From NCBI GenBank assembly GCA_032718475.1, contig JAUCBJ010007179.1:62001-126000 (forward strand): a stretch of 64,000 bases of DNA. The letters are read 5' to 3'. The notes beneath the pieces were generated by a model. It saw only the letters and a program-made list of their open reading frames with translations, had not been told where the DNA came from and did no database searches. A program made the position numbers and the translations under genes. Shown here piece by piece: positions 28,088 to 62,077 of the stretch. The DNA comes from Nemertoderma westbladi. Lineage: Eukaryota > Animalia > Xenacoelomorpha. Positions within the stretch are counted from its first letter, which is position 1, and every line of letters starts with the position of its first letter.

Positions 28088-29329
28088 TGTAAAAGCTTCT
28101 GTGGGATATAACTGGCCCCTTTTGCTTCGCAATCCAGTTTCCCCCAGGCGCTGGAATACTCTAAAAAGGTTTTCTAACTGTATATATATTCCCCTCGCCC
28201 GCAAGGTACCTTTACAGGTGTTTTAACGGACATAAAAATCATTCTGCTATATACGTATTTTGGCGGACATGGTAAGGCAAAAACTTGTAATGCACCAACT
28301 ACCTTTCACAGCTTAGCCGTGATGATTCATATTACGACATCTAGCAGCTGGTTGCTGACATGGAAACAGCCATTGGACGCGTGGTTCTTTGTTTGGCTTG
28401 GGCCAATCAGGGCGGTTTTTCCTGTCGACGTGTAGCTTTTAGTCGATCATAAGGAGAGTGTTCAGTCTTACTGCTTTTACTTGATACTTTGTTGTTATTG
28501 CTGTCTAAGCCAGAAACACCGGCTTTTTGGTAAGAACTCTAGTAAACTGCTTAGATTATAGAAAGTATAACTGTTACCGGCGGCGGTGTTACCTCACTTA
28601 ATTTAACTGCACTAATCATATTGTTTGTACTGCTATTTACCGTCAGTTATTAATTGTATCTATTTGTTGATGGAAATATTGCTCTTTGGAGAATACGGAT
28701 AAATCACCCAAAATTCCCAATTTTCTTGATACACTACAGGTTAGAGAGGCGGGCTATATATAACAATTGCGATTTATATCAATGTGGTGTGTATTGAATC
28801 TAATGTTATTTAGTAGACACTACCTGAGTCAATTGCTGTTCTCTTTATGTGTGATCAAATATACTGACGGTCGGCAGAATAGTGTGCATGATTGTGAGTG
28901 TGATGTGACTGGTAACAAAGCATTTCCTAAAGAATGCGACTTATACTTTAATCATAAGCCTTATCGTTGCGTTTAGTATAAGTCCTAGCTCTGTTTAAAT
29001 AGATAGAGCGCCACGTCCTAAAGGAACTGTTAATATTTCCCGAAAGTTAATAATATCTGTCAGAAATTACATATTACTGTATTAGTGATCTATCGAATAA
29101 TACAATAGGTTTACACTGCAACCTTACACTGCAATAATAAAATCTAAGCATCCGAATTCAGCCTCCCGGGTGTAGATCCATCGGGTGAATGATCGCGCAT
29201 GGGCTGGCTTCGGCTAATGTTTTGTTTATTAGCATAAAATATTGTCGTATGCTAAAGGTGTGTTAATTAACTAAAAGACATATAAATTTTGGCAGGTTAA
29301 ACTGCTAAAGGTCTTCAAAAGCGCGAACA
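28088..29329 (+). repeat. 5' LTR of element 1 (1242 bp, TGT...ACA)
   Basis: No differences from 37702-38889 spotted by eye. End placed by homology to the TSD-defined end of element 2 (AAAAGCGCG(A/T)ACA). Confidence 0.9.
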
Positions 29330-29339
29330 GTAACAGTTA
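29330..29339 (+). promoter_or_regulatory. Non-tRNA primer-binding site of element 1 (GTAACAGTTA)
   Basis: Abuts the LTR, has no TGG, and is the perfect reverse complement of LTR positions 28568-28577 (TAACTGTTAC). Confidence 0.7.
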
Positions 29340-31604
29340 GTTAATCTTATTGCAGTAGGCAATAAGGTTGCAAGTGTAGGCATTAAATACAGTTTAATAC
29401 TGTTCTGTCGAACAGTAACAGTTTACAATCTTATTGCAGTAGGCAATAAGGTTGCAAAATACCGTAGTGACTGGTAAAACTGAACCGGTGCTTCTGTAGG
29501 TCAGTAGGCCTAACTGTCATCACCGGTACCGGTACTGCTGTACAAGTACATTTAGTATTATTCGATTTTGATTATTGTATACCGGTAGGTCTCGATATTA
29601 AATCGGGGACGCCTGGTTTTTATTGGGATTTTACTTAGGTCTATTTCTGTCAGTTTTATTTACTAGTAGGCTAATATTGAGCAGAAGGCGTGTGACCCTG
29701 CTCAGATTGTTCAGATAATTGTAGGCTGAGCTGCTGTCTGACTGTTGTTGAGTTTGGAGAGATTACGGCGTGTGTAGAGTTTGTCTGATAAAGTGCCGTT
29801 AGTAAGTTGGGGCAGCCATATGCTGAAGGTCAATCCCCTCTTAAAGAATAAGTCGTACTACCGTGTTAGAACGCATACTAACTAACAGTTTCAGAGTCTG
29901 CATATACTGTAGTTTATTTAGGCTTGATCGTAGTCTGCCAGTGTTTTAGCCTGTGTTTGTTTGTGTGGTCTGTTCAGGTACCGTAATAGTTATTACTCAG
30001 ATATTTTGTAGGCTGGATTGTTGTCTAGCTATTTTTAGGTCTGAAGGGATTGCTGCGTGTGTAGAGTTGGTCTGATCAAGTGCCGTTAGTAAGTTGGGGC
30101 AGCCATAAGCGGTAAGGTCAATCCCCTCTTAAAGAGTAAGTCGTACTACCGTGTTAGAACGCATACTAACTAACAGTTTCAGAATCTGCACATACTGTAG
30201 TTTGTTTAGGCTTGATAGTAGTTTGCCAGCGTTTGGTTTGTATTTGTTTGAGTATTCTGTACGGGTAGCGTAATATTTATTATTCAGAGTTTATGCGATT
30301 ATTCGCAACATTCATGTCCCCAAGTTTATTCCTACAGTAATTGTGCTTGTTATACATACCGTTATAGTTAAACTAACCCCGGTACTACATCAGGGCTGCT
30401 TGGCGTAGGTAAAGACTGACGACTTTGTGCTTCGGTCACTCCAGCAGATGCCGTGGTTCTTTTAACTGTTCAAGTATATTTAACTACTGATTATTTGTTA
30501 TACCGGTACTTGTACCTAATTTAGGGTTTAGTGTACAGTGCTTTCCGAAGTAATTAGTGTAGGCAGTATATTTGTGTTGTAAAGTGGTTGATAGGCACAT
30601 TCGTTAGCTCTATTAGCTTCTGGGTAGGAACAATCCGTGATACATAACGTTGTACCTATAGCGATACGGTTATAGGTCGTCAGGCGGTGGTATTTTCCTA
30701 TCTGGACAACGCAGTGTATTTACTACTACTTATTATTTTCAAATACCGTAGTACCCTGTTCATTGTAATAACCAGAATTCTAACCCTTTGTTAGGCTGGT
30801 TTGTAGACTTCCTGTAAAATTACCCTAAAAATTTCGTACGTAATATTTTTGTTGTGTTTAATTAGAGAATTAATCTCACCCGTATCGTAAGTAATTTGTA
30901 GTATTAAGTAACTTAGGTAAATTAGAATTATCAGTTTTAGTGTCAAATAAATAGCACTTCACTGAGAGGCGTTCAGCTTCTGTGTAGTGACTCCCCCAGA
31001 AATAATAACATTTATTTCAAATATTGACAAAAACCCATTTTAAACGGGTATATAAATATTATAAATCAACTCAAACGATTTATAAATAGTAGGCCTGCCA
31101 TACAACAACTAGGTCTCAATATCAGTTGGACTACTGCTTAAATAACGGTAATAAAGTAAGTTAAAGTAACCAAGTAACCCTAAAATATTCAGAAATTCAA
31201 TTATTCTAAAATAATTGACATACCAGTATTTACCATAGGCTTATTATATTTATTTCTATAAATTTGAGCTGAAATCATACCGGTACTCTGTAATTAATTC
31301 TAGTTCATAATTATACTTATATATACTATAAGTGTAAGCTGTATACCGGTATTCACTATAGGCCTATTATATATTTATATATATTTGTGCTAAATTTATA
31401 TACCGGTACTCTGTGACAAATCTCGTCTGTAATAATACTTATATATACTATAAGCATACCGGTATTCTAATATATTATATATATATATCACGCTACATTG
31501 AGTAGCAGTATCGGTAATTAATTATTAGGCTAGCAGTGATACTGAATTACTAGACTTGCTTTAACTGTATATATAGCAGTAGGCATCCAACTGTATAAAG
31601 CGAA

Positions 31605-34600
31605 ATGTCTGACACAACACAAACATTGTCAGATAGTCTCTTAGAGGGTTTTAGAATGAGTCGTCGACTTGGACAGTGTCTTGAAAGGAGAGAAGACAGA
31701 AAAGCGGCAGAGGCAGTGGCAGAAGCAGAACGGAAGACGTCTGAAGCGACTATCCAACTAGAGCTGGAAAACCTTCAGGCGAAACAAGATTACTTGAAGA
31801 AACAAACCAGAAGACTACCTGTGCCCAGTAGGACTGTTCCCGAGTCCGAACCCGTCCTGGACGCCGAGCGAGGTATCAAGAATTTATCGCCCGTCGTCTC
31901 TCGCTCGCCCGCTACTACGTTGGCGACTCCCGCTTCGGCGGTTGAGTGGGTAGCTGAGGGACGACGGGAGATGGGTCTCCTGCTCGAGCAGCTGAGGGAA
32001 CACTGTTTGCGCTCCTCTCAGCAGGTCAGGGAAATGGAAGAGACGGTTCAGCAGCTCAAGGGAACAGTAAGGGAAAGTAGGTTAGAGTTGCAAAAAGTGC
32101 AGCAAAGTATCGCACTAGAATGCGACAAATTAGTCAACCTACAAAAGGGAATACCAATAACCCCTGTAACAGTGTGTCAGCCTGTTAGGTCTGAAGTATT
32201 ACATGCGCAAGGTGTGGAGCCTACACGCATCTATACTGCTAGTGAAGTAGAAACTCCTATAGCAAACCCTATTAAGGGTGATTATACGCCTGTTGTTAAT
32301 GACATTCCCAATAGACTTGATAATAATTCGAGAAATTTATATACCGATAACTCGATATTCAATAACACGATGGCCCAAGAAAGTTTTACGCGTCAAATGG
32401 CTAGAACCGAAGCCCGTCAAGCGGTAAAGGTTGGAGAGATAGTCAAGTTCAATGGAGATGAGATGAAATGGTTACCTTTTAATGAATATTATAAAGATAA
32501 CATACAGAACTCTGTGTTATCCAACGGAGAGAAACTTAGATTCCTCATCGAGTGCTTGGAAGGACCTCCCAAGTCAATGGCGTTAAAATTTATTGGACAT
32601 CCAGATGGATTAAGACAAGTTTGGGATACACTAAACATCAGGTATGGTAATAGGAATAACATAGCTAGGTATTTATATGCGAAATTAATGGCCCCCCGAA
32701 AGTTTCTTAGCAGCGGGATTATAGAGTTTTCCGATGAGATTCAGGAGATCTGTAGACAACTAGATTGGTTAGGTAAGTCTCATGAATACCAGAATTCTAT
32801 GGTTGTAGGAGCCTTAGCATCTACTTTGCCCAAGGGTGGAGTAGGTACACGCTGGGACAAGAAGGTGTTATATACGATGGAACAACAACAACGAGACCCT
32901 ACCATGGCTGATCTCATGTCATTCTTGGATGGCGAAGTGAAATTACAACTCCTAAAGCAATCCAGAGAGAAAACACCGGAAAATAAGGTAAGTGAGAAAC
33001 CCGTTTCTAGGAGAAGAGTAACACCGGTGTGTTATACTGATGACGGCGAAAGCCAAGCTTCTCAAGAAGAAGACAGCGGGAAAGACACCGAGAAATTTTA
33101 CTATGTTAACAAGACCTCAAAGGACGTAAGTAAATCTAAAGCTCGAACCCATGACAGGAGAGAACAGGTTGCTAAGACTCCTCTTCAGTTTCTTCAGTTT
33201 CCTAACAGAGTACACGGAAGAAAGCCCGAAGAAAGAACTAGAGTGCATAACGTCACCCAAAATAAGGCGAGTAACATTAAACCCAACTGTGCGCTGTGCG
33301 ACGGGCCCCACCGTTTGAGTGTGTGTGCGGAATTCCTAAAGAAATCCCTTGTAGACAGACGTACAGTTGTGTGGGACAAGCGGTTATGCTATAATTGCCT
33401 CAGACGCGGACACCAGCGGCGAACCTGTTACTCTGACATAAAGTGTGCAAAGTGCGGTGCGAAACATCACATCTTGTTACAAAGTGAATTCGAACGAAAC
33501 AGCCCGAGTCAGGTAAGTGAGCCCAAATCACATGTCCAATTCAGTGATGAGAACGACACTGACCAAAGTTCTGAGTGGGAAGGATTCTATACGGACGAAT
33601 TCTCCGACGCCAACGAATCCTGTTACCTAATAAATACCGCAGTGTATCGAGCACTTACTTACGAAAAAGACACCACCAATGAGTTTCCCCCAACTACTTT
33701 TGACAAACCACCATCTTGGAAAACTCCAACTTCCAATGTAGGAATCAGAGAATTTCCTGTAGTGCAGGTAAGAGTTCACGGTCCCAACAAAAGTTACATA
33801 GTGAACGCACTCCTTGACTCCGGCAGCACAGGAACATTCATCGATCAAGAACTAGCCGAAGATATCTTTGCTGGACAACCCAAATTCCAAACTAAGTTGA
33901 ATATGTCCGGAATTATGCAGGTTTGGAAATCTACCATAACGGCAGATTACTATGTAGGTGCGTTGTCCACCCCCCAGGATAAATTAGGAGCACAAAGTAT
34001 AAGGTCAGTAAAAATGGTGGCTATAAAGAACTTCGCTACTACCCAAGCAGACCTTTATAATTGGGACGAGGATGAGAGCATCCAACATCTTAAGATACCT
34101 CGATTCCAGACGGATTATCCTGGAGTGCAAATACTTATCGGCCAAAACGCGCACGAGGCGCTCGAGACATTGGAAAAACGACCTGCTCAACCGCAGCCAC
34201 TACAAACCTATGCGGTAAGAACTAGAGTAGGTTGGTACTTTACTGGCCCTTCCCGCAGAACTCTCGAAGAGAGACTACCATCAGAAAGACTATACCAGAT
34301 AAATGGTTTGGAAGTGGAGAGCAGTGAAGTGGACGAACTAACTGAGGGAACACCATACTCCTCAGATAATGACGATATTAACTCCAATGAAGATCAATGG
34401 AGACATCGCCCCGAGATGATTAATCTAGCCGACATCGCTTCCAGAGGAGCGACTCCTCAAGAACGGATAGATACTCCCGGCTGGTTAGGTGGACCCGACT
34501 CCCTAAGTAAAGAAGAAGATGAATGGCCTCCTCATCTTATCACGGCGGAGAGTAGACAGGCCAAGGGAGCGGAGAAAGTAACACGACAACCCAATCACCC

Positions 34601-34721
34601 AGCTGGTCGTTTATGTTTACTGGAAAGAGACCAAAAACTGTCCGGAAACTATGGAAGGCAAGATACTCTTCCTACGACCACTTCCCTAATCCGACAAATA
34701 TCTAGGGACTCCATAACGTAA
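31605..34721 (+). CDS. gag: Gag-protease polyprotein (1038 aa) with short in-frame remnants of the RNase H-end and integrase-end regions
   Basis: KFNGDEMKW (DUF1759-like), three Pao Cys-His knuckles (CALCDGPHRLSVC, CYNCLRRGHQRRTC, CAKCGAKHHILL), protease LLDSGSTGTF, then fused DQWRH..ADIASRG and GRLCLLE pieces. No stops. Confidence 0.9.
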   Translation: MSDTTQTLSDSLLEGFRMSRRLGQCLERREDRKAAEAVAEAERKTSEATIQLELENLQAKQDYLKKQTRRLPVPSRTVPESEPVLDAERGIKNLSPVVSRSPATTLATPASAVEWVAEGRREMGLLLEQLREHCLRSSQQVREMEETVQQLKGTVRESRLELQKVQQSIALECDKLVNLQKGIPITPVTVCQPVRSEVLHAQGVEPTRIYTASEVETPIANPIKGDYTPVVNDIPNRLDNNSRNLYTDNSIFNNTMAQESFTRQMARTEARQAVKVGEIVKFNGDEMKWLPFNEYYKDNIQNSVLSNGEKLRFLIECLEGPPKSMALKFIGHPDGLRQVWDTLNIRYGNRNNIARYLYAKLMAPRKFLSSGIIEFSDEIQEICRQLDWLGKSHEYQNSMVVGALASTLPKGGVGTRWDKKVLYTMEQQQRDPTMADLMSFLDGEVKLQLLKQSREKTPENKVSEKPVSRRRVTPVCYTDDGESQASQEEDSGKDTEKFYYVNKTSKDVSKSKARTHDRREQVAKTPLQFLQFPNRVHGRKPEERTRVHNVTQNKASNIKPNCALCDGPHRLSVCAEFLKKSLVDRRTVVWDKRLCYNCLRRGHQRRTCYSDIKCAKCGAKHHILLQSEFERNSPSQVSEPKSHVQFSDENDTDQSSEWEGFYTDEFSDANESCYLINTAVYRALTYEKDTTNEFPPTTFDKPPSWKTPTSNVGIREFPVVQVRVHGPNKSYIVNALLDSGSTGTFIDQELAEDIFAGQPKFQTKLNMSGIMQVWKSTITADYYVGALSTPQDKLGAQSIRSVKMVAIKNFATTQADLYNWDEDESIQHLKIPRFQTDYPGVQILIGQNAHEALETLEKRPAQPQPLQTYAVRTRVGWYFTGPSRRTLEERLPSERLYQINGLEVESSEVDELTEGTPYSSDNDDINSNEDQWRHRPEMINLADIASRGATPQERIDTPGWLGGPDSLSKEEDEWPPHLITAESRQAKGAEKVTRQPNHPAGRLCLLERDQKLSGNYGRQDTLPTTTSLIRQISRDSIT

Positions 34722-36334
34722 TAACATATGGAGTGGGTGTGTGACTATATCATTTTATATTTGTTTTTATTTTATATTTATGTATGTATTATTATGTACT
34801 TTATTATAATCGTTTTATTTAATTTTATTTAGTGGAATGTTATTTAGATTATTTAGTAGATTAGTGCAATATATTAGTGTTTATTACGTAATTACATAAT
34901 ATATCTAGTGCGACGGCGAGAAATAATTCTTTTCTCTTTCCTTACTGTCCGTGTTATATTATAAATGCGAGACTATAGTAAGATGACATGTCCGTACTTC
35001 TTAAAGTACAATAAAGCCACTACTATATTTAAGTATTATTGGTAGGCAGAGTATTAGGAATGCAAAGTTCAGATCCTCGTGTCTCGGCTAAACCAAGCTC
35101 TGGGTAGACCTTGGAAACGACTTGCCTCTTCACACTGACATTGCTTCGTGCGATATTGCTCTTCTACCTTATAACAAATAATACATATAGTAGCGTGATG
35201 TCCCTCTAACAGTAGCGTAAATCGCAAATAAAGCTGTTAAACTTTTGACCATCTGTAATTCTAGTCGATTAAGATATCGTGGCACCCACCGATATACTTG
35301 AAAGACATATTCTAGAATCAGTGGTTAACGTCCCCAGACAAGTTCTGGAATAAATCGGTGCCCATCCAAAATATTAATTTAATATTTATTAAAATCTGTA
35401 AAATTCCGATCCTTTAAAATTTCTAGTCAATTAAGATATCGCAGCACTTACCGATACTCTTAAAAAGACAAATTTCATAGAATTCAGGATCCTATGTCCC
35501 CAGACCTGCTCTGGAATCAAATTGTGTCAATTTTAACATCAAATAATAAAATTCACGGGAATAAATTTAAATTCATATTCAAATGAATTTCATAAATTGT
35601 CATTTTGTGCAATTTACAACATTCCCAAAATTCCAGTAATTAATAGATCATGGGAGCGGAGATTCATATTGAGTGTACTAGAGTGTGAGAATCTCCAACA
35701 TATAGTCAATAGCCGATAAAATTTATAAAATCATGCATAAAGAGGATATTGACAAATTAAAGAATTACTATTAAATAACATCCCAGATCTGTATACATGA
35801 GAATTGCCCTAATTCTACCGCTAGTTTTCCATAATGTCACCATGGCAACACCCACGCTAGAATTAGAAGCAAGTTAAAGGAACAATAAAAGCTTGCCCCA
35901 TTGCGTAGCATAAGAGTATACATAGCGCACTATTAGTATCCAAGGATACATAGTAATAACGTGACATTCTGGAAGACACTGACTAACGGACAAATGGCAT
36001 GCATGTGTGCAGTAAGTAATGATTGTATGGAATTTGTGCGTTTATAGGTGAATGTTACTACTAAAGTGTGTTTACAGTAGCTAATCGCAATTGTAAAGTA
36101 GCCCTAACTCTACCGAGATAACCTCAAGTGGAATCAAGCCTTTGGGACGGACAGTGGTGGGACTTGTGTCGATTATCGTTGTCGTGCTGTTGCTACATGT
36201 TGGCGCAAACACTGCGACAGCGGTACATCGGCGCTGAGAAACCCACTGTCCGGGGGCAAAAGCCTAGTAGGCAGCGACGCCCGCTTGCCTAAAATATTAA
36301 CTTATATTGATATTAATAAACTCAGATAACAGAT

Positions 36335-37623
36335 ATGACGGAATTGATAGAAGATGACCTTGGTATCAGGGAGCGATATACTCTACCTTTACAAGCGTTT
36401 GTGGATAGCTTGATACGCGGTGAAGCCGATCCGACTATTACGGAGGACGATGGTCGTTATATCGAACCGCCGATGTCCCAGGAACAACTTACGCGTGAAT
36501 TGGACTATAGAAAATTCACCGCTCGCTATACGAATCGTAATGGTACGTATATGGACTTCTTAACTACTGGCCATCCTATCGATTTACATGATACGGACGA
36601 TGTAGACACCGAAAGGGAAATGGTTCTATTTAAATATCATACCCAGCGGCGTCGTAACGATAAACCGAGAATAGATCACGAAAATTCTATTCGTAACAGA
36701 CTGGGAAGACGAACCAATATGTCTAGAATCTGAGGAGATTCAGCCTATCGCGCTCGGAACAGCGACAACGATTACATCCTAGAATGGTATCAAAGTCCAC
36801 AGTGTCTCACTGCGTACGATTATCGCCATGCCAACTATGTTTCTCGGCAACGTTGTCGGTTATGCGCATCGAGAGACCATGTTACGCCCATGGACACAAA
36901 CGTCCGCTGTTCCTATTTCCACGAACAACCGGCGATGGAAATTTATTGAGCGTATTGCAGATTTAATAATTTGCATATTTTTGCGGTTTGCCCTCAATTT
37001 ATGACTCAATGTCACCACTGTCCACTAAAGGGACACGCCAGTTTCGATTGCCCTTTTAATCGCGATTTGGAAAGCGTAGATGAAATGATCACACTACGTT
37101 ACATTAGAGCTTGGGAAGCGAACGCTGATTTACATCGTGATTCGCGCCATCGCTATTATCCTGGACGCGCTTACGAAGGAATTTATGCGTTCCATCCTTA
37201 TCTATTCGCTTCTGTCGAACAGAAATCACGCATATCGAGTTACAGGAAGTATATCGATGGCCTTACGAGTACCGAGCCCGCGAACGCGAGTTGGAAAAAA
37301 CCATTAAACCAAGGAAGTTTCTAACTGCCTATGGTCCACCCACGGCCCTCATTCAGACCACTCGTAAAGGACCCGTAAGAGCGGCTGTCTTGAAACGAGC
37401 TCTCAAAGCCGTTAGACCCCTCTCCCCCGACGTTGATGTCAATCAACTCGGCACTTCGACTGGCGGATACACCGACCATAATCCTATACCCTCTGATGCA
37501 ATCATGTTGCACCCTTCACCCATGAGTTATAGCCCTCCTTGTAAAGTGGCTCGCCCCAAAGAGAAAAAGACTCTGGCTAGCTTTAAAAAACTGCGTAAAC
37601 GCCGTCCGCGCATGAAAGACTAA
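36335..37623 (+). pseudogene. Deleted and frameshifted remnant of ORF3
   Basis: Matches the N-terminus (56478-56850) joined to the C-terminal part (59645-60726) of element 2 ORF3. The exonuclease region is missing; several frameshifts and a stop. Confidence 0.9.
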
Positions 37624-37701
37624 CTGTTTAGAGTATTTTCGTATTTGAGAAACTGTGATTTTGTATATTTTATAGACTTAAATCCCATTTTCTGGGAGCG
37701 G

Positions 37702-38889
37702 TGTAAAAGCTTCTGTGGGATATAACTGGCCCCTTTTGCTTCGCAATCCAGTTTCCCCCAGGCGCTGGAATACTCTAAAAAGGTTTTCTAACTGTATATA
37801 TATTCCCCTCGCCCGCAAGGTACCTTTACAGGTGTTTTAACGGACATAAAAATCATTCTGCTATATACGTATTTTGGCGGACATGGTAAGGCAAAAACTT
37901 GTAATGCACCAACTACCTTTCACAGCTTAGCCGTGATGATTCATATTACGACATCTAGCAGCTGGTTGCTGACATGGAAACAGCCATTGGACGCGTGGTT
38001 CTTTGTTTGGCTTGGGCCAATCAGGGCGGTTTTTCCTGTCGACGTGTAGCTTTTAGTCGATCATAAGGAGAGTGTTCAGTCTTACTGCTTTTACTTGATA
38101 CTTTGTTGTTATTGCTGTCTAAGCCAGAAACACCGGCTTTTTGGTAAGAACTCTAGTAAACTGCTTAGATTATAGAAAGTATAACTGTTACCGGCGGCGG
38201 TGTTACCTCACTTAATTTAACTGCACTAATCATATTGTTTGTACTGCTATTTACCGTCAGTTATTAATTGTATCTATTTGTTGATGGAAATATTGCTCTT
38301 TGGAGAATACGGATAAATCACCCAAAATTCCCAATTTTCTTGATACACTACAGGTTAGAGAGGCGGGCTATATATAACAATTGCGATTTATATCAATGTG
38401 GTGTGTATTGAATCTAATGTTATTTAGTAGACACTACCTGAGTCAATTGCTGTTCTCTTTATGTGTGATCAAATATACTGACGGTCGGCAGAATAGTGTG
38501 CATGATTGTGAGTGTGATGTGACTGGTAACAAAGCATTTCCTAAAGAATGCGACTTATACTTTAATCATAAGCCTTATCGTTGCGTTTAGTATAAGTCCT
38601 AGCTCTGTTTAAATAGATAGAGCGCCACGTCCTAAAGGAACTGTTAATATTTCCCGAAAGTTAATAATATCTGTCAGAAATTACATATTACTGTATTAGT
38701 GATCTATCGAATAATACAATAGGTTTACACTGCAACCTTACACTGCAATAATAAAATCTAAGCATCCGAATTCAGCCTCCCGGGTGTAGATCCATCGGGT
38801 GAATGATCGCGCATGGGCTGGCTTCGGCTAATGTTTTGTTTATTAGCATAAAATATTGTCGTATGCTAAAGGTGTGTTAATTAACTAAA
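37702..38889 (+). repeat. 3' LTR of element 1, lacking the last 54 bp
   Basis: Matches 28088-29275, then joins satellite directly. Preceded by PPT-like TGGGAGCGG at 37693-37701. Confidence 0.92.
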
Positions 38890-44497: not shown

Positions 44498-44508
44498 ATA
44501 ACAGTCAT
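44498..44508 (+). promoter_or_regulatory. Non-tRNA primer-binding site of element 2 (ATAACAGTCAT)
   Basis: Abuts the LTR and is the perfect reverse complement of ATGACTGTTAT at 61282-61292 (3' LTR). The 5' LTR copy at 43702-43712 has one mismatch. Confidence 0.72.
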
Positions 44509-44563
44509 TGACTTTATTGCAGTAAGCAATAAAGTTGAAAGTACCGATCGACCGGTAAACCTG

Positions 44564-44690
44564 AACCGGTACTTCTGTAGGTCAGTAGGCCCAACTGCCA
44601 GAACCGGTACTGCTGTAGGTCCGTAGGTCCAACTGCCAGAACCGGCACTTCTGTAGGTCCGTAGGCCCAACTGTCCTAACCGGTACTTCC
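44564..44690 (+). repeat. 38-bp tandem repeat x3.3 in the element 2 leader
   Basis: AACCGGTACTTCTGTAGGTC(A/C)GTAGGCCCAACTGCCAG repeated; about one copy in element 1 at ~29483. Confidence 0.85.
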
Positions 44691-49700: not shown

Positions 49701-52700
49701 GGTGTGTTACACTGACGACGGCGAAAGCCAAGCTTCTCAAGAAGAAGACAGCGGGAAAGACACCGAACGATCTTACTATGTTGACAAAACCTCAAAGGGC
49801 GTAAGTAAATACAAGGCTCGAAACAACGATAGGAGAGAACAGGCTGCCAAGACCCCTCCTCAGTCTCCTAACAGAATGCGCGGGAGAAAGCCCGAAGAAA
49901 GAACGAGAGTGCATCAGATTACCCAAGGTAAAGTAAGTAACATAAAACCTAACTGTGCGCTGTGCGACGGGACCCACCGTTTGAGTGCGTGTGCGGAATT
50001 TCTAAAGAAATCCCTTGTAGACAGACGTACAGTTGTGTGGGACAAGCGGTTATGCTATAATTGCCTCAGACCAGGACACCAACGGCGAACCTGTTACTCC
50101 GACATAAAGTGTGAAAAGTGTGGCGCGAAACATCACATCTTGTTACATAGTGAGTTCGAACGAGACAAGCAGAGTCAGGTAAGTGAGTCCGAACTACATG
50201 TCCAATTCAGTGATGTAAATGACACTGAGCAGGAGTCTGAGATGGAAGGATTCTATACTGACGAATTCTCCGACGCCAACGAATCCTGTTATCTAATCAA
50301 TACCGCAGTGTATCGAGCACTTACTTACGAAAAGGACACCACCAATGAGTTTTCCCCAACTACTTTTGCCAAACAACCATCTTGGAAAACGCCAACTTCC
50401 AACGTAGGAATCAGAGAATTTCCTGTAGTGCAAGTAAGAATTCATGGTACTCACCACAGTTACATAGTGAACGCACTCCTTGATTCCGGCAGCACAGGAA
50501 CATTCATAGATCAAGAATTAGCCGAAGACATCTTTGCTGGACAACCCAAATTCCGGACAAAATTGAATATGTCAGGAATTATGCAGGTATGGAAATCTAC
50601 CCTAACGGCAGATTACTACGTAGGTGTGTTGTCCACTCCCCAGGATAAGTTAGGAACACAAGGTATAAGGTCGGTAAAAATGGTGGCTATAAAGAACTTC
50701 GCTACTACTCAAGCAGACCTTTATAATTGGGACGAGGATGAGAGCATCCAACATCTTAAGATACCTCGGTTCCAGACAGATTATCCTGGAGTGCAAATAC
50801 TCATCGGCCAAAACGCGCACGAGGCGCTCGAAACATTGGAGAAACGGCCTGCTCAACCGCAGCCACTGCAAACCTATACGGTAAGAACTAGAGTAGGTTG
50901 GTACTTTACTGGCCCTTCCCGCAGGACTCTCGAAGAGAGAATGCCACAAGAACGAGTAGATCATGTGAGCGATTGGAGCGAGGAGAGCAGTGAGGTGGAC
51001 GAACTAACTGAGGGAACACCATACTCCTCAGATAACGATGACACTTATCAACTCTTCGATGAGGAGAACACCATAGACTTACTTACAGAAAACCAAACTT
51101 GGAAAGATCAGGTGAACCTATGTCAACTGATTCACCCATCGGAACCCATCGCTTACAATGACGAACTCAACGATGAGATAGAGCGCTGCAACGCTAGAAC
51201 TCGGGACGAACTAGCCGTACGATTCTTTACTCAGGAACTTGTAGAGCCCAATTCGTATGATAAGGCTCTATCGATAGAAGAAGAAAGAGCCAAGCAAATC
51301 CAGGAAACAACTACACGTTTTTTAAAAGACCAAGGTAGGTATGAAATCGGCCTGCCATTTCGAAAACGAGAACCTAGATTTATAAATAACAGACCCTTGG
51401 CAGAGAAAAGAATCGCTCAATTACATCGACGCCTTACAGCTAATGCTTCAGCGAAAGAAATGTACCAAACTCAGCTGAAGAAATTTATAACAAAGGGATA
51501 CGCGGAGCGAGTACCGGAAGGAACACCAGTGACTGAGAGAACGTATTACTTAACACATCATTACGTTCCCAAACCCGGTAAGCCCCATGAAGTACGAGTC
51601 GTATTCGATGGCTCTGCTCTATATATGGGCCAATCCCTTAATTCCGAGTTGTTACCAGGACCCAATTTACTCCAATCTTTGTTGGGAATACTTTTGAGAT
51701 TAAGACAGTATTCCATCGCGTTCGCTTCCGATATCTAAGGAATGTTCTTACAAGTCAAGGCGCTGGAGAGAGATAGAGACCGCCTGAGATTTCTGTGGTG
51801 GCCTGAAGGAGACCTCAACCAGAAACCGGTAGAGTACTGGATGACCATCCAGGCTTTTGGGATCATATCTAGCCCTTCCAACGCCTGCTCCATAGTGCGA
51901 ACCACTGCGAATGACAACAGAGATTCCTTCTCAAAGGAAGTGATAGACAATATAAAACGTAATATATACATGGACGACAATTTAAGGTCCCTTCCATCAG
52001 TAGAAGAAGCCATAGCTGTCGCAAAAGGAACGGTAGAGTGTTTGAAAAGAGGTGGATTTCGACTAACGAAATTCACTAGCAACTCCCGTGAGTTTCTGGA
52101 AGCCATACCGGTAGAAGACCGCGGAGCGAAAGATCTAGACTTAATAAAGGATGATCTTCCTGAAACCAAGACGCTTGGCTTGAAGTGGGACACTGAAAGA
52201 GACATCCTGTTTTTTCAGTTAAAACAGCGAGATAATCCAGTTCGGACCAAACGGATTTGTTTAAGTATCCTGAGCACTTATTTCGACCCATTGGGATTCA
52301 TTAGCCCAGTTATATTGATTGCTCGGAGTTTAGTACAACAAATGTGGCTTGAAAACCAATCATGGGACGATCCGCTTAAGGGAGAATTGTTAAAGAAATG
52401 GATGAAATGGGAAGATTCTCTACCTGCCATCGAGAACTTTATAATTTCCCGTGCATATTTTGGCCATGTTCTTCCTACGTATTCCTATCAACTCCATGTG
52501 TTTGGAGACGCCAGCGACATGGGAATAGGTATAGTAGCATATCTGCGAGTCGAAACTCCGGATGGAATCAAGGTCGCCTTGGTTACCTCTAAGGCACTGA
52601 TTAACAACAAGTTAAAGGTTCCTCGAGCGGAGTTAAAAGCGGCTTTATACGCTACAGCCATCGGCCGGAACGTAACGGAACAAATCGATTACCCACTGGA

Positions 52701-54852
52701 GAAAACGGTTTATTGGACCGACGCTTTACTCGTGTTGGAATATCTAACCAATGAAGTCTGTCAGTTCAGTGTTTTTGTTAATAACAGGGTAGCTATTATT
52801 CTTAGTCGCACAAAGATAGATCAATGGAGACATTGCCCTGGTACGATTAATCCAGCCGATATCGCCTCCAGGGGAGCAACTCCGCAGGAACTGATAGATA
52901 CTCCAGATTGGTTGGGTGGACCCGACTTCCTGAGCAAGGAAGAGGACGAATGGCCTCCTCACCTTACTACGGCGGAAATTAGACAAGCCAAGGGAGCGGA
53001 GACCGTCAAACCTAAAACCCGGGCGAGTAAATCGAAGTTATTTAAACCGACTATCGATCTATCTGTATTACATGTTTCCGGAAACGATGATTTGGATCCA
53101 CAATCCCTCGCTATAAATAAGTCTGTTGCGGAAATTCGAGATAGAGATTGGAAATCTGGAATACCAGACGTCTCGCAAGGAATCTCACCCCTGCTGCAGA
53201 GAGCGATGCATCACTACAGTTCCTGGAATCGGCTCTGTAAAGCCGTCACATATTTAAAGAGATGCTTTCATCATCAATACTCCAGGATGAAGACCACTAG
53301 TGATAATGCTCCATTGACATCTGCACAAGTTCATGTTATTAAAAACTTACCTAAATATAAGGTATCTGACAGTTTTCTAAAGGAGAAAATTAGTCACCAG
53401 GAGCATGAAGAGACCAATAAACAGATACTGAGACTCCTGCAATGCTATGAGGATTCCGAAAAGTATTTCCTGTTGTTGAGAAATCCGCAGATGCGCTTAA
53501 GGGATCGATTCTCTAGCACAATGATAGATGGGTTAATACATGTTGGAGGAAGGCTCACCAATGCACCCTTATCCTTTGACACTAAATTCCCCATACTCAT
53601 TAGAAATCTTGAAGTACAAATCAAGATGATTGTAGATGTTCACAGTAAGCTTTATCATGCTGGAAGAGAACGAGTTCTTAGCGAAATTCGAACTCGCTAT
53701 TATTTTGATAAACCCCGTAGAGCTCTGAACCAAGTTCTTAGGAACTGCATACCCTGTAGGAAAGCATTCAGTAGGCCTTTAACACAGCGAGAGGCAGAAT
53801 TACCTAGGGAACGAGTAAGCTTCTATGAACCACCTTTTACTAATACTGGTGTAGATTTATTTGGCCCTATTGAAGTATATCGTGCGAGGACTATAGTCAA
53901 GAGATGGTGTGTCATCTTCGTGTGCATGACTTGCAGAGCCATCCATCTCGATATGGTGAACGATCTATCTACCAACAGTTTCGTCTTAAGTTTACGACGA
54001 CAGATCGCTCGCTTCGGTACGAGTAATACCATGAGATCGGACAAGGGAACGAACTTCATTGGTGCCAACAACGAAATACAGGCTTACGTAAAGGACTGGA
54101 ACCAAAGACAGGTGGATGACCAGCTAAGGATAACAGCGTCTAGCTGGACCTTCAACGCCGCCGACGCCCCTTGGTGGGGAGGAAGTTGGGAGAGATTAAT
54201 TAGAAGTGTTAAGACCGCATTTCACTTTATAGTGCCATGCCGTGCGTATCTCACTGACGAACTTTTGCGGACGTTAATGGAGGAAATAGCTGCCTATCTC
54301 AATGAGAGACCGCTTATGCCAGTCTCATCGAGTCCCGATTCCCTGGAAGCGCTAACACCTGCGCACTTCCTACTGAAGAAACCGGTAGCCATGCTCCCAC
54401 GATCGGAGATTGCCGACGGAGACGAATACTGCCGTCGAACTTGGCAACTTTTGCAGTTGCTATCCCGTCGTTTCGCTGACCATTTCGAGAAACATTACCT
54501 GCCCACGCTACAACTTCGAACTAAGTGGTTTGCGCAGCAAGAAAACGTCAGCGCCGGAGATATGGTATTTATTGTAGATCCAGACCTCCCACGTAAACGG
54601 TGGCAGACAGGTCGTATCATCGAGACCCATATCTCGGAGGATGGTTTAGTGCGTTCAGTAGAACTCATCGTTATGCGGCGTAACTTCAAGAAGCCCGGCA
54701 TAATCTTTGAGACGCAACAACTCAATCGCCCAGTTGGTCGTTTATGTTTACTGGAAAGAGACAGAGAACTCTCCGGAAACTATGGAAGGCAAGACACTCT
54801 TCCCACGACCACCTCCCTAATACCTCAAACATCTAGGGACTCCCCAACGTAA
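46732..54852 (+). pseudogene. gag-pol: Single Gag-Pol ORF (~2706 codons) with two in-frame stops (47746-47748 TGA, 51736-51738 TAA)
   Basis: ORFs 46732, 47791 and 51742 share one frame. Gag knuckles; PR LLDSGS; RT VRVVFDGS, GPNLL, SDI*GMFLQV, YMDD at 51967; RNase H FDPLG, HVFGDAS, PRAEL, YWTD, NPADIASRG; IN H-x4-H..CIPC, GVDLFGP, RSDKGTNF, GSWERLI; DUF5641-like tail. Confidence 0.95.
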
Positions 54853-56477
54853 TACGTCTGGAGTGGGTGTATGACTATATTATTTTATCTATTTTATTAC
54901 ATTTTATATGCAAACTTTATTATGTACTTTATTATAATCGTTTTTATTCAATTTTTATTTAGTAGAATGTTATTTTAGGGATTATTTAGTAGATTAGTGC
55001 AATATATTAGTGTTTATTACGTACGTAATTACTTATAATATATATTTAGTGCGACGGCGAGAAATAATTATTTTTCTCTTCCCTTACTGTCCGTATCATA
55101 TTATAAATACGTGACTACAGTAAGATGAAATGTCCGTACTTCTTAAAGTACAATAAAGCCACTACTATGTTCGAGTGTTGTTAGTAGGCAGAGTATTAGG
55201 AATGCAAAGTTCAGATCCTCGTGTCTCGGCTAAACCAAGCTCTGGGTAGACCTTGGAAACGACTTGCCTCTTCACACTGACATTGCTTCGTGCGATATTA
55301 CTCTTCTACCTTATATTAAATAATACATATAGTAGCGAGATGTCCATATAACAGTAGCATAAAACGCAAATAAATCTGTTAAACTTTTGACCATCTGTAA
55401 TTCTAGTCGATTAAGATATCGCGGCACCCACCGATATACTTGAAAGACAAATTCTAGAATCAGTGGTTAACGTCCCCAGACAAGTTCTGGAATAAATCGG
55501 TGCCCATCTTAAATATTAATTTAATATTTATTAAAATCTGTAAAATTCAGATCCGTTAACAATTCCAGTCGATTAAGATATCGTAGCACTTACCGATACT
55601 CTTAAAAGACAAATTTCATAGAATTAAGGATCCTATGTCCCCAGACCTGCTCTGGAATCAAATTGTGTCAATTTTAACATCAAATAATAAAATTCACGGG
55701 AATAAATTTAAATTCATATCTTAAATGAATTTCATAAATTGTCATTTTGTACAATTTATAACATTCCCAAAATTCCATTAATTAATAGATCATGGGAGCG
55801 GAGATTCATCCTATTGAGTGTATTAGAGTGCGAGAATCTCCAACATATAGTCAATAGCCGATAAAATTAATAAAATCATGCATAAAGAGGATATTGACAA
55901 TTAAAGAATTATTATTAAATAGCATCCCAGATCTGTATGCATGAGAATTACCCTAATTCTACCGCTAGCTTTCCATAATGTCACCATAGCAACACCCACG
56001 CTAGAATTAGAATTGAGTTAAAAGAACAATAGAAGGCATACCCCATTGAATAGCATACGGAATAAATAGCGCACCGCTAGTATCCAAGGATACATAATAA
56101 ATACAGTGACATTCTGGAAGGTACTGACTAACGGACAAATGGCCCGAATGTGTGCGGTTTGTTGCAGTTGTGTTGAATTTGTGCGTTTGTAGGTGAATGT
56201 TACTACTAAAGTATGTTTACAGTAGCTAGTCGCAATTGTAAAAATAACCCAACTTTCCTATAGAAAGAACCTAAGTGGATCCAAGCCTTTGGGACGGACA
56301 GTGGTGTGACTTGTGCCGGTTATCGTTGTCGTGCTGTTGCTACATGTTGGCGTAAACACCGCGACGACGGTACATCGGCGCTGAGAATCCCACTGTCCGG
56401 GGGCAAAGAAAGTAGGCAGCGACGCCCGCTTGCCTAAATACAAACTTATTTGATATTGATAAACTCAGATAGCAGAT

Positions 56478-59400
56478 ATGACGGAGTTAATAGAAGATGA
56501 TCTCGGTATTAGGGAGCGATATACTCTACCTTTGCAAGCATTTGTGGATAGCTTAATACGCGGTGAAGCCGATCCAACCATTACGGAGGACGATGGTCGT
56601 TATATCGAACCGCCGATGTCCCAAGAGCAACTTGCGCGTGAATTGGACTATCGAAAATTCACCACTCGCTATACGAATCGTAATGGTACGTATATGGACT
56701 TCCTAACGACCGGCCATCCTATCGATTTACATGATACGGACGATATAGATACAGAAAGAGAAATGGTTCTATTTAAATATCATACCCAGCGGAGTCGTAA
56801 CGATAAACCGAGAATAGATCACGAAAATTATATTCGTAATAGACTGGAAAGAGAAAACGTTGAAGAACCGGATAAACGCATCGACTTCAACGAATACTTA
56901 GAGTTTTTGAGAGAAACCTATCTCAACGTCGCTAGTCAGCAGAACTTAGAGACTCGATATCCTCAAGGTATCCATCACGACCCTGTAGTAGAACTCAAAC
57001 GGCTCTATTTCACTATGATGTATCTTACCGCCGATCGTCCACTACCTGTTATCCCGGATAGTTTTGAACAAATGGAAGAATACTGCAAAACTGGAGAACG
57101 ATCACCCGCGTTTCCTTTACAGGATGTGCGTCTTTGGTATTATTGCGACGAATGCCCTAGACCCAACCAACAAATTGAAAGACATAAACATCCACGGAGA
57201 CGTTGCGCTAAACATAGTTTTACGCGTTACACTTACGGGAGTTTCGAGCGAAACCTGTTCGACGTACCGCCCACGATCGCTCGTCTTAAACGATCACTGA
57301 ATAAACCCATGATCAGAGTTCCGGAATACTCGGTCAGGCCTCCTCATTCCCTAGTGAGACCTCAAACTCTTGATCCTAACAGTATCACTGATCCTCCCGA
57401 ACTATATTCCCTGTTCAAAGACTTAGTGTTACCCGAACAATTAATCGGTGGCGCTCCGGTAGTGGGTTCGTTAGACATCCGCCCATCCTACTTAGCCGGA
57501 TTGGGACGCGGGCAGCTAATATCACCCTTTGATCCTTACAATCGTCCAGGATTAAACCCGATACAACCCGCTACGGAAGTCGAGGAGAGCGTTATAAGAA
57601 ATGCTTTAGACGCCATTTGACAGAAAATCGGAAAGGGAACACAAGATTGTTTAGAGAAACGTAAATTACAACAACAAGTCCAAGCGGTGAAGGAGTTAGC
57701 CTTACCACAGTTCGATAGAGAAATCCGAAACCTCGAGGAAGACATCGAGCTTGGACGCACGTATTCTCTCCAAGAATTCTTAGATGAACGCTTACAGAGA
57801 CAAGCGGAAGAAATTCTACTCGAGGAGAAACACACGAAACTGGAAGAAAGAGAAGAAGCCGCTTTAGCCCAACCTGAAGCTCAAATCCTCATGACGGACC
57901 TCTACTCTAAAACCGTTCGTCATCCCTCTATGATTCCACATTTCGGAGACAAGCTCTTCGCGACGATACAACCTCAACCGGTTGATATCAGTATAGGATC
58001 GCAAAATATTATCGCTGACGCCCCTATGTTACAGCGTCCGCCGATCGAGGCCGCTCGTGTTGACGGTATACTCGTTGAACCTCCGGACAATCGAGCGGAT
58101 CTTGTCCGTCGTATGGTACACGATGTCAACATACGCGCTAGACCTTTACAGAACTCGTTTTACGGGATTAAAGACCACCCTTATTACGTTAATCTGACTC
58201 AATATTATATGGTAAAACCAGAAGACCCGACACATGATTTAAAGTTTCTACCACTAATAAATCCTCTAGACATTGTCGAACTCGAACAATTGCAGAAACA
58301 TCTGGATCAGTTAGTAAAGGTAAACTCATTTAGAAAACCATATAACATTTCGCGAATCGAGAAAGATATAGAAACTCCTTATAACCTCGATGGATTTATT
58401 AAAACTCGATTAGTCCATTGGAATCTAGATGTATTATTTGAAGAAGAGAAAATACAAAGATATGGAACTGTGGAGACGTATACCACTCGGCATATGAAGT
58501 ATAGGGATCTCCCTGACGCTAACCAATGCGCCACCTTGTGGCATCCAGTAGGGATGACCCTAGAGAACGCCACCAAGGAGTGGAATGAAACTCTTAATGT
58601 TATCGAGATGTATGGAGTTGTCACCTACGATAATGAAGGTAGCGTTCCGGTCGGAGAGCTAGGAACTACGCGCATGATCCACATCCGCGGATTAGCTGGT
58701 TCTACCCACGTGTTTACTCGAGCGTGTTCCGACTTGATTGATTATTCTTTTGAAACTCTTACCGAAACACAAAAGAATCTCCGACATGGACAATTCGAAC
58801 TCGCGCAGCGTTACGTCATTGACACCGAACGCAAACCGGCCATGGGCATCGATGGATCGATGTTACCCCAGCCCGTACTCGAGATGTTGTTCAACGAAAG
58901 AATCCTTAAAATCGGCTCAGCTGTTTATGGAGATCTCCAAAACGACTTTCGGAATATGGAGGACATTCCATACCCTTTCGTTGATACTCAGCTGATTGCT
59001 CCCTGGGCAGAAGGTCGAGGTTTCTTCCGCACCATGTATGCTAATACGTCTAGCAACATTACCAAGGTGCAACGGACTTCCATCGGACATCTTGCCTTTC
59101 AGGAATACGGATGGAATTTCAAAGTCGGAAATCCCGTTAACTATCAACAAGTATACGGAGACCATTATTCTCGATTATACTTTGATGGACCATTGACCGC
59201 ACCTGGCGCCGTGTATAGCTTCATGAGTGTTCCACTCCGTCCCTCCTTAGCTATATACCTTTGAAAACACCGCACTTGCCGGTTGGCTAGCCGATGTGTG
59301 CAGTCGTACCATACGCGCCCATCCATTAATACTTGGGACCAAACTCGATAAACTAGATGAACATAATAAATTCATTCGTTTCGAATGTTTCCGGCGATTT

Positions 59401-60726
59401 TTAACCCCGTTCCGCAACGTGGATAGCCAATTTAAAGACCGCGCTTTGACCAAGCTCAGCCTAAGAGACTCAGCTGCAGAGAAGTTGGATAGCGCTGGAT
59501 TCGCCATTTTCCAGGAGATTTGTACATCGAACCTGCACTCCTCTGTTCTACAAAGACCTCGAATCCCCACCGGTTATTCTGTCGTAGAAATTCAGACAAT
59601 AGGTCCACCCGAGGAGACAGACACGCCCACCTCATCTATGCACTTAGAAGATGAACCAATATGTCTAGAATCTGAGGAGATTCAGCCTATCACGCCCCGG
59701 AACAGCGACAACGACTATATCATCGAATGGTATCAAGGTCCACAGTGTCTCACTGCGTACGATTATCGCCATGCCAACTATGTTTCTAGGCAACGTTGTC
59801 GGTTATGTGCATCGAGAGACCACGATACGCCCATGGATACCAACGTCCGCTGTTCCTATTTCCAAGAACAACCGACTATGGAAATTTATTGCGCATATTG
59901 CAGACTCAATAATCTGCATATCTTTGCGGTTTGCCCTCAATTTATGACTCAATGTCACCATTGTCAACTAAAGGGACATGCCAGTTTCGACTGCCCTTTT
60001 AATCACGATTTGGAAAGCGTAGATGAAATGATCACACTGCGTTACATCAGAGCTTGGGAAGCGAACGCTGATTTACATTGTGATTCGCGCCATCGCTATT
60101 ATCCCGGACGCGCTTACGAAGGAGTTTATGCGTTCCATCCTTATCTATTCGCTTCTGTTGAACAGAAATCACGCATATCGAGCTACGAGTTACTGAAGCG
60201 CGTCGGAGAATGTATTTCAACTAAATTTGTACGCAAATTTCTCAGGAGTGTTAATCCTAGCGACCTTCATTCCTATAACTTAATCAATTATATCCGTCAG
60301 GATCCAGACTATGGAGACTTGTTTGTTAACTCACACCCTGAGTTACAGGAAGTATATCGACGGCCTTACGAATACCGAGCCCGCGAACGCGAGTTGGAAA
60401 GGACCATTAAACCCCGGAAGTTTCTAACTGCCTATGGTCCACCCACGGCCCTCGTTCAGACCACACGTAAAGGACCCGTAAGAGCGGCTGTCTTGAAACG
60501 AGCTCTCAAAGCCATTAGACCCCTCTCACCTGACGTTGACGTCAATCAACCCGGTACTTCGACTGGCGGATACACCGACCATAATCCTACACCCTCTGAT
60601 GCAATCATATTGCACCCTTCACCCAGGAGTTATAGCCCTCCTTGTAAAGTGGCTCGCCCCAAAGAGAAAAGGACTCTTGCTAGCTTTAAAAAACTGCGTA
60701 AATGCCGTCCGCGCAAGAAAGACTAA
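56478..60726 (+). pseudogene. ORF3 (~1415 aa when repaired): unknown N-terminus, coiled coil, DEDDy-type 3'-5' exonuclease fold, triple CCHC zinc knuckles, basic tail. One in-frame stop (57618-57620) and one frameshift (~59260)
   Basis: ORFs 56478 and 57687 are in the same frame. Motifs VVTYDNEG, LPQPVLEMLFNERILKIGSAVYGDL, FVDTQ, SIGHLA, PLT-x5-Y and CHHCQLKGHASFDC. Element 1 fuses the N- and C-terminal parts, consistent with a single gene. Confidence 0.82.
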
Positions 60727-60795
60727 CTGTTTAGAGTATTTACGTATATTAGAAACCGTGATTTTTGTATATTAATAGACTCAAATCCCATTTTC

Positions 60796-60804
60796 TGGGA
60801 GCGG
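60796..60804 (+). promoter_or_regulatory. Short polypurine-tract-like plus-strand primer site TGGGAGCGG
   Basis: Directly abuts the 3' LTR in both elements. Confidence 0.65.
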
Positions 60805-62077
60805 TGTAAAAGCTTCTGTGGGATATAACTGGCCCCTTTGCTTCGCAATCCAGTTTCCCCCTAGGCGCTGGAATACTCTAAAAGGGTTCTCTAACTGTAT
60901 ATATATTCCCCTTGCCCGCAAGGTACCGTTACAGGTGTTTTTAACGGACATAAAAGTCATTCTTCTATATACGTGTTTTAGCGGACATGGTAAGGCAAAA
61001 AACCCGCAATACGGCAAATACTTTACACAGTTTAGCCGTGATGATTCAGATTACGACATCTAACAGCTGGTTGCTTAAATGGAAACAGCCATTGGACGCA
61101 TGGTTCTTTGTTTGGCTTCAGCCAATCAGAGCGATTCTCTCTGTCGATGTGGAGCTTTGAGCCAATCATAGTGGGATTGTTCAGTCTTACAGTTTTTTAC
61201 TGATACTTTGTTGTTATTGCTGTCTAAGCCAGAAACAACGCCTCGAGAAAGAAACATTAGTAGGCTTAAATTATAGAGCGTATGACTGTTATCAGTACAC
61301 AGTCTAATTCACGGCACAATTTGGACACTTAACATATCACTGTATATATCTGTTCATATCATATCTTAACCTACCGTCTTAATATTTTTACTGTTGTTAT
61401 TATTTTATATCAGTTGATTGAAGATTATTTGGAGAACGTTTATAAAGAACCCAAATTTCCCAATTTTCTTGATACACTACAGGTTAGAGAGGCGGGTTAT
61501 ATTTATAGCGATTGCGACTTATATTATTGTGGTGTGTATTGAATTTAATGCTATTTGATAAGCACTACATTGGTCCGTTGCTATTTTCTTTATATATGAT
61601 AAAATTCATTGACGGTCGGCAAGTTAGTGAGCAGTATTTTGTGTTACCGGTAGTGTGCATGATTGTGGCTGATAACTAAGCATTTCCTAAAGAATGCGCC
61701 TCATACGTGAATCATAAGCCTTACCGACTTACCGTTGTGATTAGTGTAAGTCATATCTCTGTTTACTTAGATAGAGCGCCACGTCCTAAAGGAACTGTTA
61801 ATATTTCCCGAAAGTGAATAATATTAGTCAGAAATTATTTATTAACGATCAATCGAATAATACAATACCGTAAGCTTCACTGCAATAATAATCTAAGCCG
61901 ACAGAATCCAGTCTCCCGGGATTATCCAGCGGGTGAATGGACGCGCACTAGGCTGGCTTCTGCTAATGTTGTGTTTATTGGTATTAAATATTGTCATTTT
62001 CTAGAGTCGATTTATAAACCAAAAGACATATAAATTTTGGCAGGTTAAACTGCTAAAGGTCTTCAAAAGCGCGTACA
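60805..62077 (+). repeat. 3' LTR of element 2
   Basis: Direct repeat of 43225-44497, followed by TSD ACATG. Confidence 0.95.

Follow-up and report, generated by a model that had tools for sequence, protein, structure and literature searches.

Two elements of a long terminal repeat (LTR) retrotransposon of the BEL/Pao superfamily are present in the 64,000-nucleotide (nt) stretch of Nemertoderma westbladi DNA analysed here (the window, in which all positions are counted), and each carries a primer-binding site (PBS) that is complementary to a segment of its own LTR. Comparison of the two elements and of their relatives makes it likely that this family primes reverse transcription with its own RNA in one form or another, and fairly probable that the annealing stretch is read contiguously from the LTR. 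Such priming has precedents outside BEL/Pao: in Tf1 and Tf2 of Schizosaccharomyces pombe, Tj1 of Schizosaccharomyces japonicus and the Tf1/sushi group, a tRNA PBS is absent and some 11 nt adjoining the LTR anneal to RNA derived from the LTR of the element itself, according to the available portions of PMC7175516, PMC4600332 and PMC5341516.

Primer-binding sites and their complements in the LTR

Element 1 (E1) extends from 28088 to 38889 and element 2 (E2) from 43225 to 62077, both on the plus strand, and the two are subfamilies of one BEL/Pao LTR retrotransposon. The features that take part in the pairing, or delimit the LTRs, are as follows (PPT, polypurine tract).

28088..29329, + strand: E1 5′ LTR, 1242 nt, TG...CA
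28568..28577, + strand: candidate self-primer site of E1, LTR nt 481-490, complementary to the PBS without mismatch
29330..29339, + strand: E1 PBS, offset 0, no TGG
37694..37701, + strand: E1 PPT, GGGAGCGG
37702..38889, + strand: E1 3′ LTR, last 54 nt missing, with the second primer-site copy at 38182-38191
43225..44497, + strand: E2 5′ LTR, with the primer site at 43702-43712 and a mismatch at 43710
44498..44508, + strand: E2 PBS, offset 0, no TGG
60805..62077, + strand: E2 3′ LTR, with a copy of the primer site at 61282-61292, perfect over 11 nt; PPT at 60797-60804

As the initial annotation of this DNA had stated, neither element has a TGG-type PBS: TGG is absent in both between positions -10 and +100 relative to the LTR end, and no site of the kind that pairs with a tRNA 3′ end is recognised there. 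In coordinates and in letters, as stated there, the E1 PBS at 29330-29339 matches 28568-28577 and 38182-38191 as their reverse complement, and the E2 PBS at 44498-44508 matches 61282-61292 in the same way, the 5′ LTR copy at 43702-43712 carrying G for T at 43710. Each PBS begins at the first base past the LTR, which agrees with the earlier proposal that the primer end would fall at the LTR boundary, and the partner sites are indeed homologous, beginning at LTR nt 481 in E1 and nt 478 in E2 and aligning with each other. Pairing is perfect over 10 nt in E1 and over 11 nt in E2 with its 3′ LTR, within the limits by which self-primers are recognised (at least 10 nt, at an offset of 0 to 5). At offset 0, 10 of 3000 dinucleotide shuffles matched as well as the E1 LTR, and 1 of 3000 as well as the E2 3′ LTR.

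Three of 11 positions distinguish the PBSs of E1 and E2; two of these differences are matched in the LTR, and the third, at the 11th position, pairs in E2 alone. The two base-pair changes, reported previously, were recovered on both strands, and among 23 listed conserved helices of at least 10 base pairs (bp) in the LTR and leader, only the PBS:LTR helix has two double-sided changes. The probability that the E1 11-mer would drift into the exact E2 complement is about 0.001-0.002. The 53 nt preceding the PBS are invariant between E1 and E2, and a variable PBS beside such a stretch is unlike a site fixed to one tRNA.

Contigs of four runs (X1, X3, X4 and X5, of which X4 is presumably an RNA run) were aligned to this DNA. 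In three studies carrying the same organism label, the family occurs abundantly and in many subfamilies, and it is also found under a second organism label. Among the substitutions listed, none of at least 1% falls at E1 28560-28577, indels being found from 28578 on, and none was listed in the four runs at 28706-28748, around an acceptor-like site of the LTR. No variant at the PBS or the primer site was found among 40 of the 208 variants, and exact LTR patterns had no match in metagenome or viral contigs. The deepest-covered stretch in the runs is a 48-nt invariant LTR block at 29000-29047 (E2 ~44190-44237), which holds a second, 8-nt complement of the E1 PBS that ignores the change in E2.

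Complements in related BEL/Pao families

Alignment of a pol piece with 29 homologues led to 98 related loci. In 40 of them pol is flanked by a repeat on each side, and in 26 of these the right end was fixed by the flanks. L046, L055 and L094, in which the repeat was not a clean LTR end, were dropped, the ends of L096 and L090 were shifted by homology, and L034, L061, L070, L027 and L074 were added with ends set by likeness to their sisters, giving 28 loci in total. Eight loci with TGG, together with L088 by judgement, make up four tRNA-type families, and the remainder make up 13 non-TGG families. The loci numbered L073 to L098 are 26 BEL/Pao loci in records labelled as bacterial genomes or metagenome-assembled genomes, and they are most likely animal host DNA.

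A complement of 10-12 nt to the family's own PBS was found in its own LTR in 10 of the 13 non-TGG families, two of them contiguous and eight across a predicted intron, while none of the four tRNA-type families shows a contiguous or split complement; this contrast upholds self-priming, the interpretation of the initial annotation, as the best reading of the window family. In the material compared here (two elements, one tRNA motif and contigs that are mostly DNA), no example was encountered of the three outcomes named in that annotation as refuting it. The contiguous cases, L056 and L079, have 11-nt complements as in the window family, and L015, L080 and L082, the remaining three families, were placed in neither class. 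Perfect contiguous runs of at least 8 nt occur in 7/13 non-TGG families (Fisher p 8e-6), in 1/26 control windows and in 0/4 tRNA-type families. In the contexts printed, the partner begins directly after a pyrimidine tract and YAG.

When one GT-AG intron was allowed, perfect complements of 10-12 nt were obtained in 8/13 families (each p 0.003-0.033; Fisher 9e-7), compared with a Fisher value of 0.46 for control windows and at most 5 nt in TGG-type loci. Because this test was designed after the pattern had been seen, its weight is carried by three further checks, namely the quality of donors and acceptors, specificity and a blind scan. The chosen donors and acceptors outscore other GT and AG sites (p 9e-4 and 6e-4), only the dinucleotides having been required. 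All eight junctions match solely their own PBS, over 10-12 nt versus at most 6 nt for the others. L073 and L076, whose LTRs are 88% identical, have a homologous GTGAGT donor at which CAC is replaced by TAA, and their PBSs change in step from GTG to TTA; for L073 the intron scan had chosen a weaker tied donor, and the homologous GTGAGT donor was used for this comparison. The blind scan, run on the 39 other loci whose upstream DNA was long enough, gave six matches, all at GTAAGT, versus 0-2 in ten null runs; the other 33 of the 39 had no match, some contigs probably missing part of the LTR.

Taken with the window family, these results lead us to lean towards a broader view, in which a large BEL/Pao branch abandoned tRNA priming, most of its members splicing the primer from two LTR exons and window-type lineages reading it contiguously. 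Intron loss was considered as the source of the contiguous L056 primer and set aside, the flank alignments being not significant. In L027, L031, L044, L070 and L074, and in the contiguous L056, the paired end of exon 1 is preceded, at a distance of 1-2 nt, by a GGGA motif.

Proposed mechanism and alternative explanations

The following sites surround the primer site and the PBS; the promoter and splicing functions given for them are putative.

28181..28188, + strand: TATA-like box in an invariant block, LTR nt 94; candidate promoter, with a start near nt 125
28272..28277, + strand: conserved splice-donor-like GTAAGG, LTR nt 185
28372..28466, + strand: two CCAAT-type boxes and TCAGT, LTR nt 285-379; alternative candidate promoter, with a start near nt 377
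28714..28753, + strand: 40-nt block invariant between E1 and E2, LTR nt 627-666, with an acceptor-like TACAG at 28739
29092..29103, + strand: U5 arm of a U5:leader helix that is conserved and 12-13 bp long, partner 29555-29566; in E2, 44271-44283 with 44706-44718
29275..29315, + strand: predicted stem-loop in the invariant U5 end directly before the PBS, z -2.8
29342..29370, + strand: predicted hairpin directly after the PBS, z -5.6; kept in E2 at 44510-44536, z -5.1

Either candidate promoter lies upstream of LTR nt ~480, so that the primer would be internal, and the earlier caveat to this effect stands. The mechanism proposed here is modelled on Tf1 as presented in the available portions of PMC7175516, PMC4600332 and PMC5341516. 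Transcription would start upstream of LTR nt ~480, and the 5′ LTR transcript would fold nt ~480-490 back onto the PBS. The element's RNase H would cleave at the end of the duplex, at nt ~488-490, and reverse transcriptase (RT) would extend from the cleaved end into U5, starting minus-strand DNA. The primer would probably be a capped 5′ fragment of ~11 to 360 nt, of which the last 10-11 bases anneal to the PBS, and the missing 5′ part would be restored from the 3′ LTR. In retroviral replication, the primer is copied during plus-strand synthesis. The same step here would copy the primer into the PBS, rewriting it and carrying changes over, which would explain the joint change of the PBS and the LTR site. 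In the eight related families (of 13) with a split complement, the annealing stretch would be joined when the host spliceosome splices an LTR intron; only the cap-proximal intron would be removed, the LTR retaining its intron. The 3′ LTR copy, being unspliced, would then be unable to compete for the PBS, and only capped, spliced 5′ ends would prime.

Predicted folds bear on this mechanism in both directions. The U5 stem-loop predicted beside the PBS lies in an invariant block, and 1-2 of 200 shuffles fold as well. In nested folding of RNAs running from nt 377 or 480 to just past the PBS, the primer helix reaches a probability of 0.94-0.98 in E1, and of 0.58 or 0 in the same short RNAs of the mismatched E2 copy. 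The U5:leader helix surrounds the PBS and crosses the primer helix.

Several observations weigh against self-priming of the window family. In nested folds, RNAs that reach 270 nt beyond the PBS, or that begin at nt ~127, give the primer helix a probability of 0, and the crossing U5:leader helix forms at 0.9-0.99 in longer RNAs; these folds count against a stable equilibrium primer helix, the method covering neither transient nor pseudoknotted pairing. The E2 copy that would supply the primer, in the 5′ LTR, has its mismatch 3 nt away from the end of the primer and is by itself not significant (1802/3000 shuffles); we read the mismatch at 43710 as a post-insertion mutation because it is one of eight LTR differences in a dead copy. 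The covariation comes from just two subfamilies, E1 and E2. Depth in X1 is ~96,000 at the E1 primer site versus 567,000 just upstream, a drop of about sixfold which implies that most subfamilies are not represented at the site. Scoring of unspliced LTRs by duplex energy, or with mismatches tolerated, revealed no signal distinguishing the groups (1/15, Fisher 0.12). In a quick tree, the branch of the window element is long and its placement among the relatives unsure, and the element's 82-row clade combines 13 non-TGG rows with one TGG row. The donor at nt 185 and the acceptor at nt 652 could, judging by their motifs, excise the primer site from the mRNA. Finally, both PBSs also pair with an anticodon-arm motif of tRNA-Asn type.

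This last pairing belongs to the explanation in which the primer is half of a host tRNA, with tRNA-Asn(GUU) cleaved in its anticodon loop as the most plausible source, the LTR complement being secondary. The one tRNA sequence compared, given in PMC7330628, is a mouse anticodon-arm motif, which we take to be that of tRNA-Asn. It pairs over 8 bp with both PBSs, the T/C change at PBS position 9 facing a G in the motif, and priming from the anticodon loop of several tRNAs is reported in the available text of PMC10886601. However, the duplex is shorter and weaker than that with the LTR (-8.1/-10.3 versus -11.4/-12.4 kcal/mol) and needs G-U pairs, it leaves the matched LTR changes unexplained, and it cannot cover the unrelated PBSs of the relatives, each of which is matched by its own LTR; among plant elements, as far as the available part of PMC6317226 reports, tRNA halves were found only in Ty1/copia. 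We therefore consider a tRNA half quite unlikely. A structural or regulatory switch, in which the PBS:LTR helix would act in packaging, dimerisation or translation or would mask the PBS, with priming proceeding otherwise, gains from the presence of other conserved helices in the region, one of which excludes the primer helix in nested folds. It appears rather unlikely in view of a pairing that starts exactly at the first post-LTR base, of a helix that measures 10-12 bp across unrelated families, and of the fact that no alternative primer site was seen. A chance match in a long AT-rich LTR is hardly credible and largely refuted: 59 of 3000 shuffles equal E1 once the offset may range over 0-5, and 27 of 8346 interior E1 positions possess a complement of at least 10 nt in the LTR, but the corresponding figure for the E2 3′ LTR is 5 of 3000 (and 1/3000 at offset 0), and chance would have to produce the double compensation and the signal in other families as well.

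The contiguous form of self-priming has its own alternative, in which the window family also splices its primer: exon 1 would end at ...ACT (nt 485) and be joined to the GTTA that follows the acceptor at nt 652, so that 9-10 nt would match at offset 1, as in the relatives. The block with the acceptor does not vary across 40 nt and is conserved in the four runs, the letters after the acceptor-like TACAG are GTTA, as in the 3′ half of the primer, and the intervening stretch is the least conserved of the LTR (65-70% identity). Against these points, the donor ACT/GTTAYC is non-consensus, fitting one of four consensus positions after GT, the match is not significant (p 0.08-0.12), base 1 of the PBS covaries with the unspliced base and not with the spliced one, and no GT-AG joint was listed in any of the aligned contig sets, which are mostly DNA. 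A spliced primer is accordingly unlikely in this family, and the stretch that anneals is most likely read without splicing, as far as the LTR sequences indicate; the invariant acceptor at LTR nt 652 may be a relic, or the partner of another donor. An E1 split with a donor at LTR nt 92, which would give 10 nt, was rejected, as it lies inside the TATA box and misfits the changed base of E2.

Element structure and known priming systems

Coding and other features of the two elements, and of the array that hosts them, are listed below (ORF, open reading frame).

31599..34721, + strand: open gag-protease frame of E1; RT, RNase H and integrase mostly deleted, non-autonomous
46726..54852, + strand: gag-pol frame of E2, interrupted by stops at 47746 and 51736
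56463..60726, + strand: second ORF of E2, ~1400 codons, with one stop and one frameshift
29411..29458, + strand: older duplicate of the E1 LTR end and PBS region, with a 9-nt PBS copy at 29415-29423
21186..63999, no strand: 27-bp satellite array hosting both elements (21186-28087, 38888-43225 and 62077-63999)

The gag-pol domains of E2 comprise DUF1759, CCHC, protease (DSG), RT (YMDD), Peptidase_A17/RNase H, integrase and DUF5641. The BEL/Pao assignment made initially is borne out by this content, since Pfam DUF1759, Peptidase_A17 and DUF5641 occur together with the order protease-RT-RNase H-integrase, and by the homologues, in that PF05380 is present in every one among the matches listed (at least 120); the closest proteins are merely ~35% identical across the whole query. 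TG...CA LTRs, a PPT and a 5-bp target duplication are also as in BEL/Pao, and the domains are not those of the Ty3/gypsy chromovirus pol that defines the Tf1/sushi group. The target duplication, ACATG at 43220-43224 and 62078-62082, is visible for E2 alone, the right end of E1 being lost. The E2 LTRs show eight differences over 1273 nt, and those of E1 are identical at all 1188 shared positions. E1 is a non-autonomous deletion derivative, and its identical LTRs and open gag-protease frame of 1040 codons make recent movement in trans probable. E1 and E2 are inserted at different positions of the 27-bp satellite unit, and a preference for the satellite is possible.

The second ORF brings E2 to 18.9 kb, and E1 retains just its ends. 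It is likely, as a lead from sequence matches, to contain a DEDDy-like 3′-5′ exonuclease region: 25 of 30 Atlas matches are to PF01612 (score 0.91), one homologue (E 3e-5) bears weak exonuclease and zinc-knuckle matches, and three zinc-knuckle-like motifs are present. Pfam and PDB searches with this ORF were blank, and its AlphaFold2 model (predicted local distance difference test score, pLDDT, 31) leaves the fold unsupported. A role of the exonuclease-like ORF as a general primer trimmer was rejected; the ORF is absent from all 98 related loci and is therefore not required for the priming signature. It recalls the bdelloid LTR retrotransposons Juno and Vesta, whose ORF3 encodes a DEDDy exonuclease (PMC5408684, in part), in being an extra 3′ ORF with a likely 3′-5′ exonuclease, and differs in belonging to BEL/Pao and in its zinc-knuckle motifs.

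No tRNA genes or Rfam families were found within E1 or E2. The 2.2-kb leader contains a 38-bp tandem repeat (44563-44689) and a 288-bp duplication (44862-45440) common to E1. A conserved 11-nt stretch 75 nt upstream of the 3′ LTR (37627-37637; 60730-60740) is complementary to LTR nt 68-78, and this pairing would enclose the PPT. Elsewhere in the window, a non-LTR retrotransposon fragment with endonuclease and RT (10523-13031) and a 20-bp satellite (4792-6901) have no relation to the priming finding.

The window family resembles the Tf1/sushi group in lacking a tRNA PBS and in having about 11 nt beside the LTR that pair with its own LTR-derived RNA, and unlike that group, which consists of Ty3/gypsy chromoviruses, it is BEL/Pao. 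A U5 stem-loop is predicted beside its PBS, as in Tf1, where the requirement for such a structure is indicated by the title of a reference. The Tf1 primer is formed by the first 11 bases, whereas transcription of the window family probably starts upstream, the loop being about 750-785 nt; an intron-split primer is not described for the Tf1/sushi group in the available portions of the three papers cited for it. Self-priming is also named, for Tf1/sushi, Tcn1 (Ty3/gypsy) and TAR (Ty1/copia), in the available part of PMC6317226, with a criterion of at least 10 bp at 0-5 nt after the LTR. The same sequence criterion applies to the window family, but the plant TAR and Tcn1 belong to other superfamilies and hosts, are predictions only and are contiguous. 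Among BEL/Pao elements primed by a tRNA, the olive-fly element Achilles has an 18-nt tRNA-Tyr-type PBS (PMC4580426, in part). Achilles and the TGG-type loci L065, L086-L093 and L098 share superfamily, domain order and a 0-4-nt spacer with the window family; unlike it, the TGG-type loci have LTR complements of at most 5 nt. In copia, Ty5 and the fungal Helenus, a tRNA half primes at a non-TGG site adjoining the LTR, as the available text of PMC10886601 has it. Here the primer is a host tRNA fragment with no covarying LTR partner, unlike the window family. In the BEL/Pao element Cer7 of Caenorhabditis elegans, the primer is said to be encoded by the element itself, as a tRNA-like RNA that derives from the 3′ internal region. 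Such a primer would differ from that of the window family in not being an LTR segment, and the one paper checked is silent on priming.

No description of BEL/Pao self-priming or of splice-built primers was found in the literature searched, subscription papers, Repbase annotations and supplements being outside its scope. Self-priming has been shown in the fission-yeast Tf1 and predicted in some Ty3/gypsy and Ty1/copia elements, and BEL/Pao, if the present reading is true, would be the third LTR superfamily to use it. This would account for BEL/Pao elements without an assignable PBS, which LTR-finding tools that require a tRNA PBS would miss. The split form would couple reverse transcription to host splicing in the relatives, and self-primers may escape silencing by 3′ tRNA fragments.

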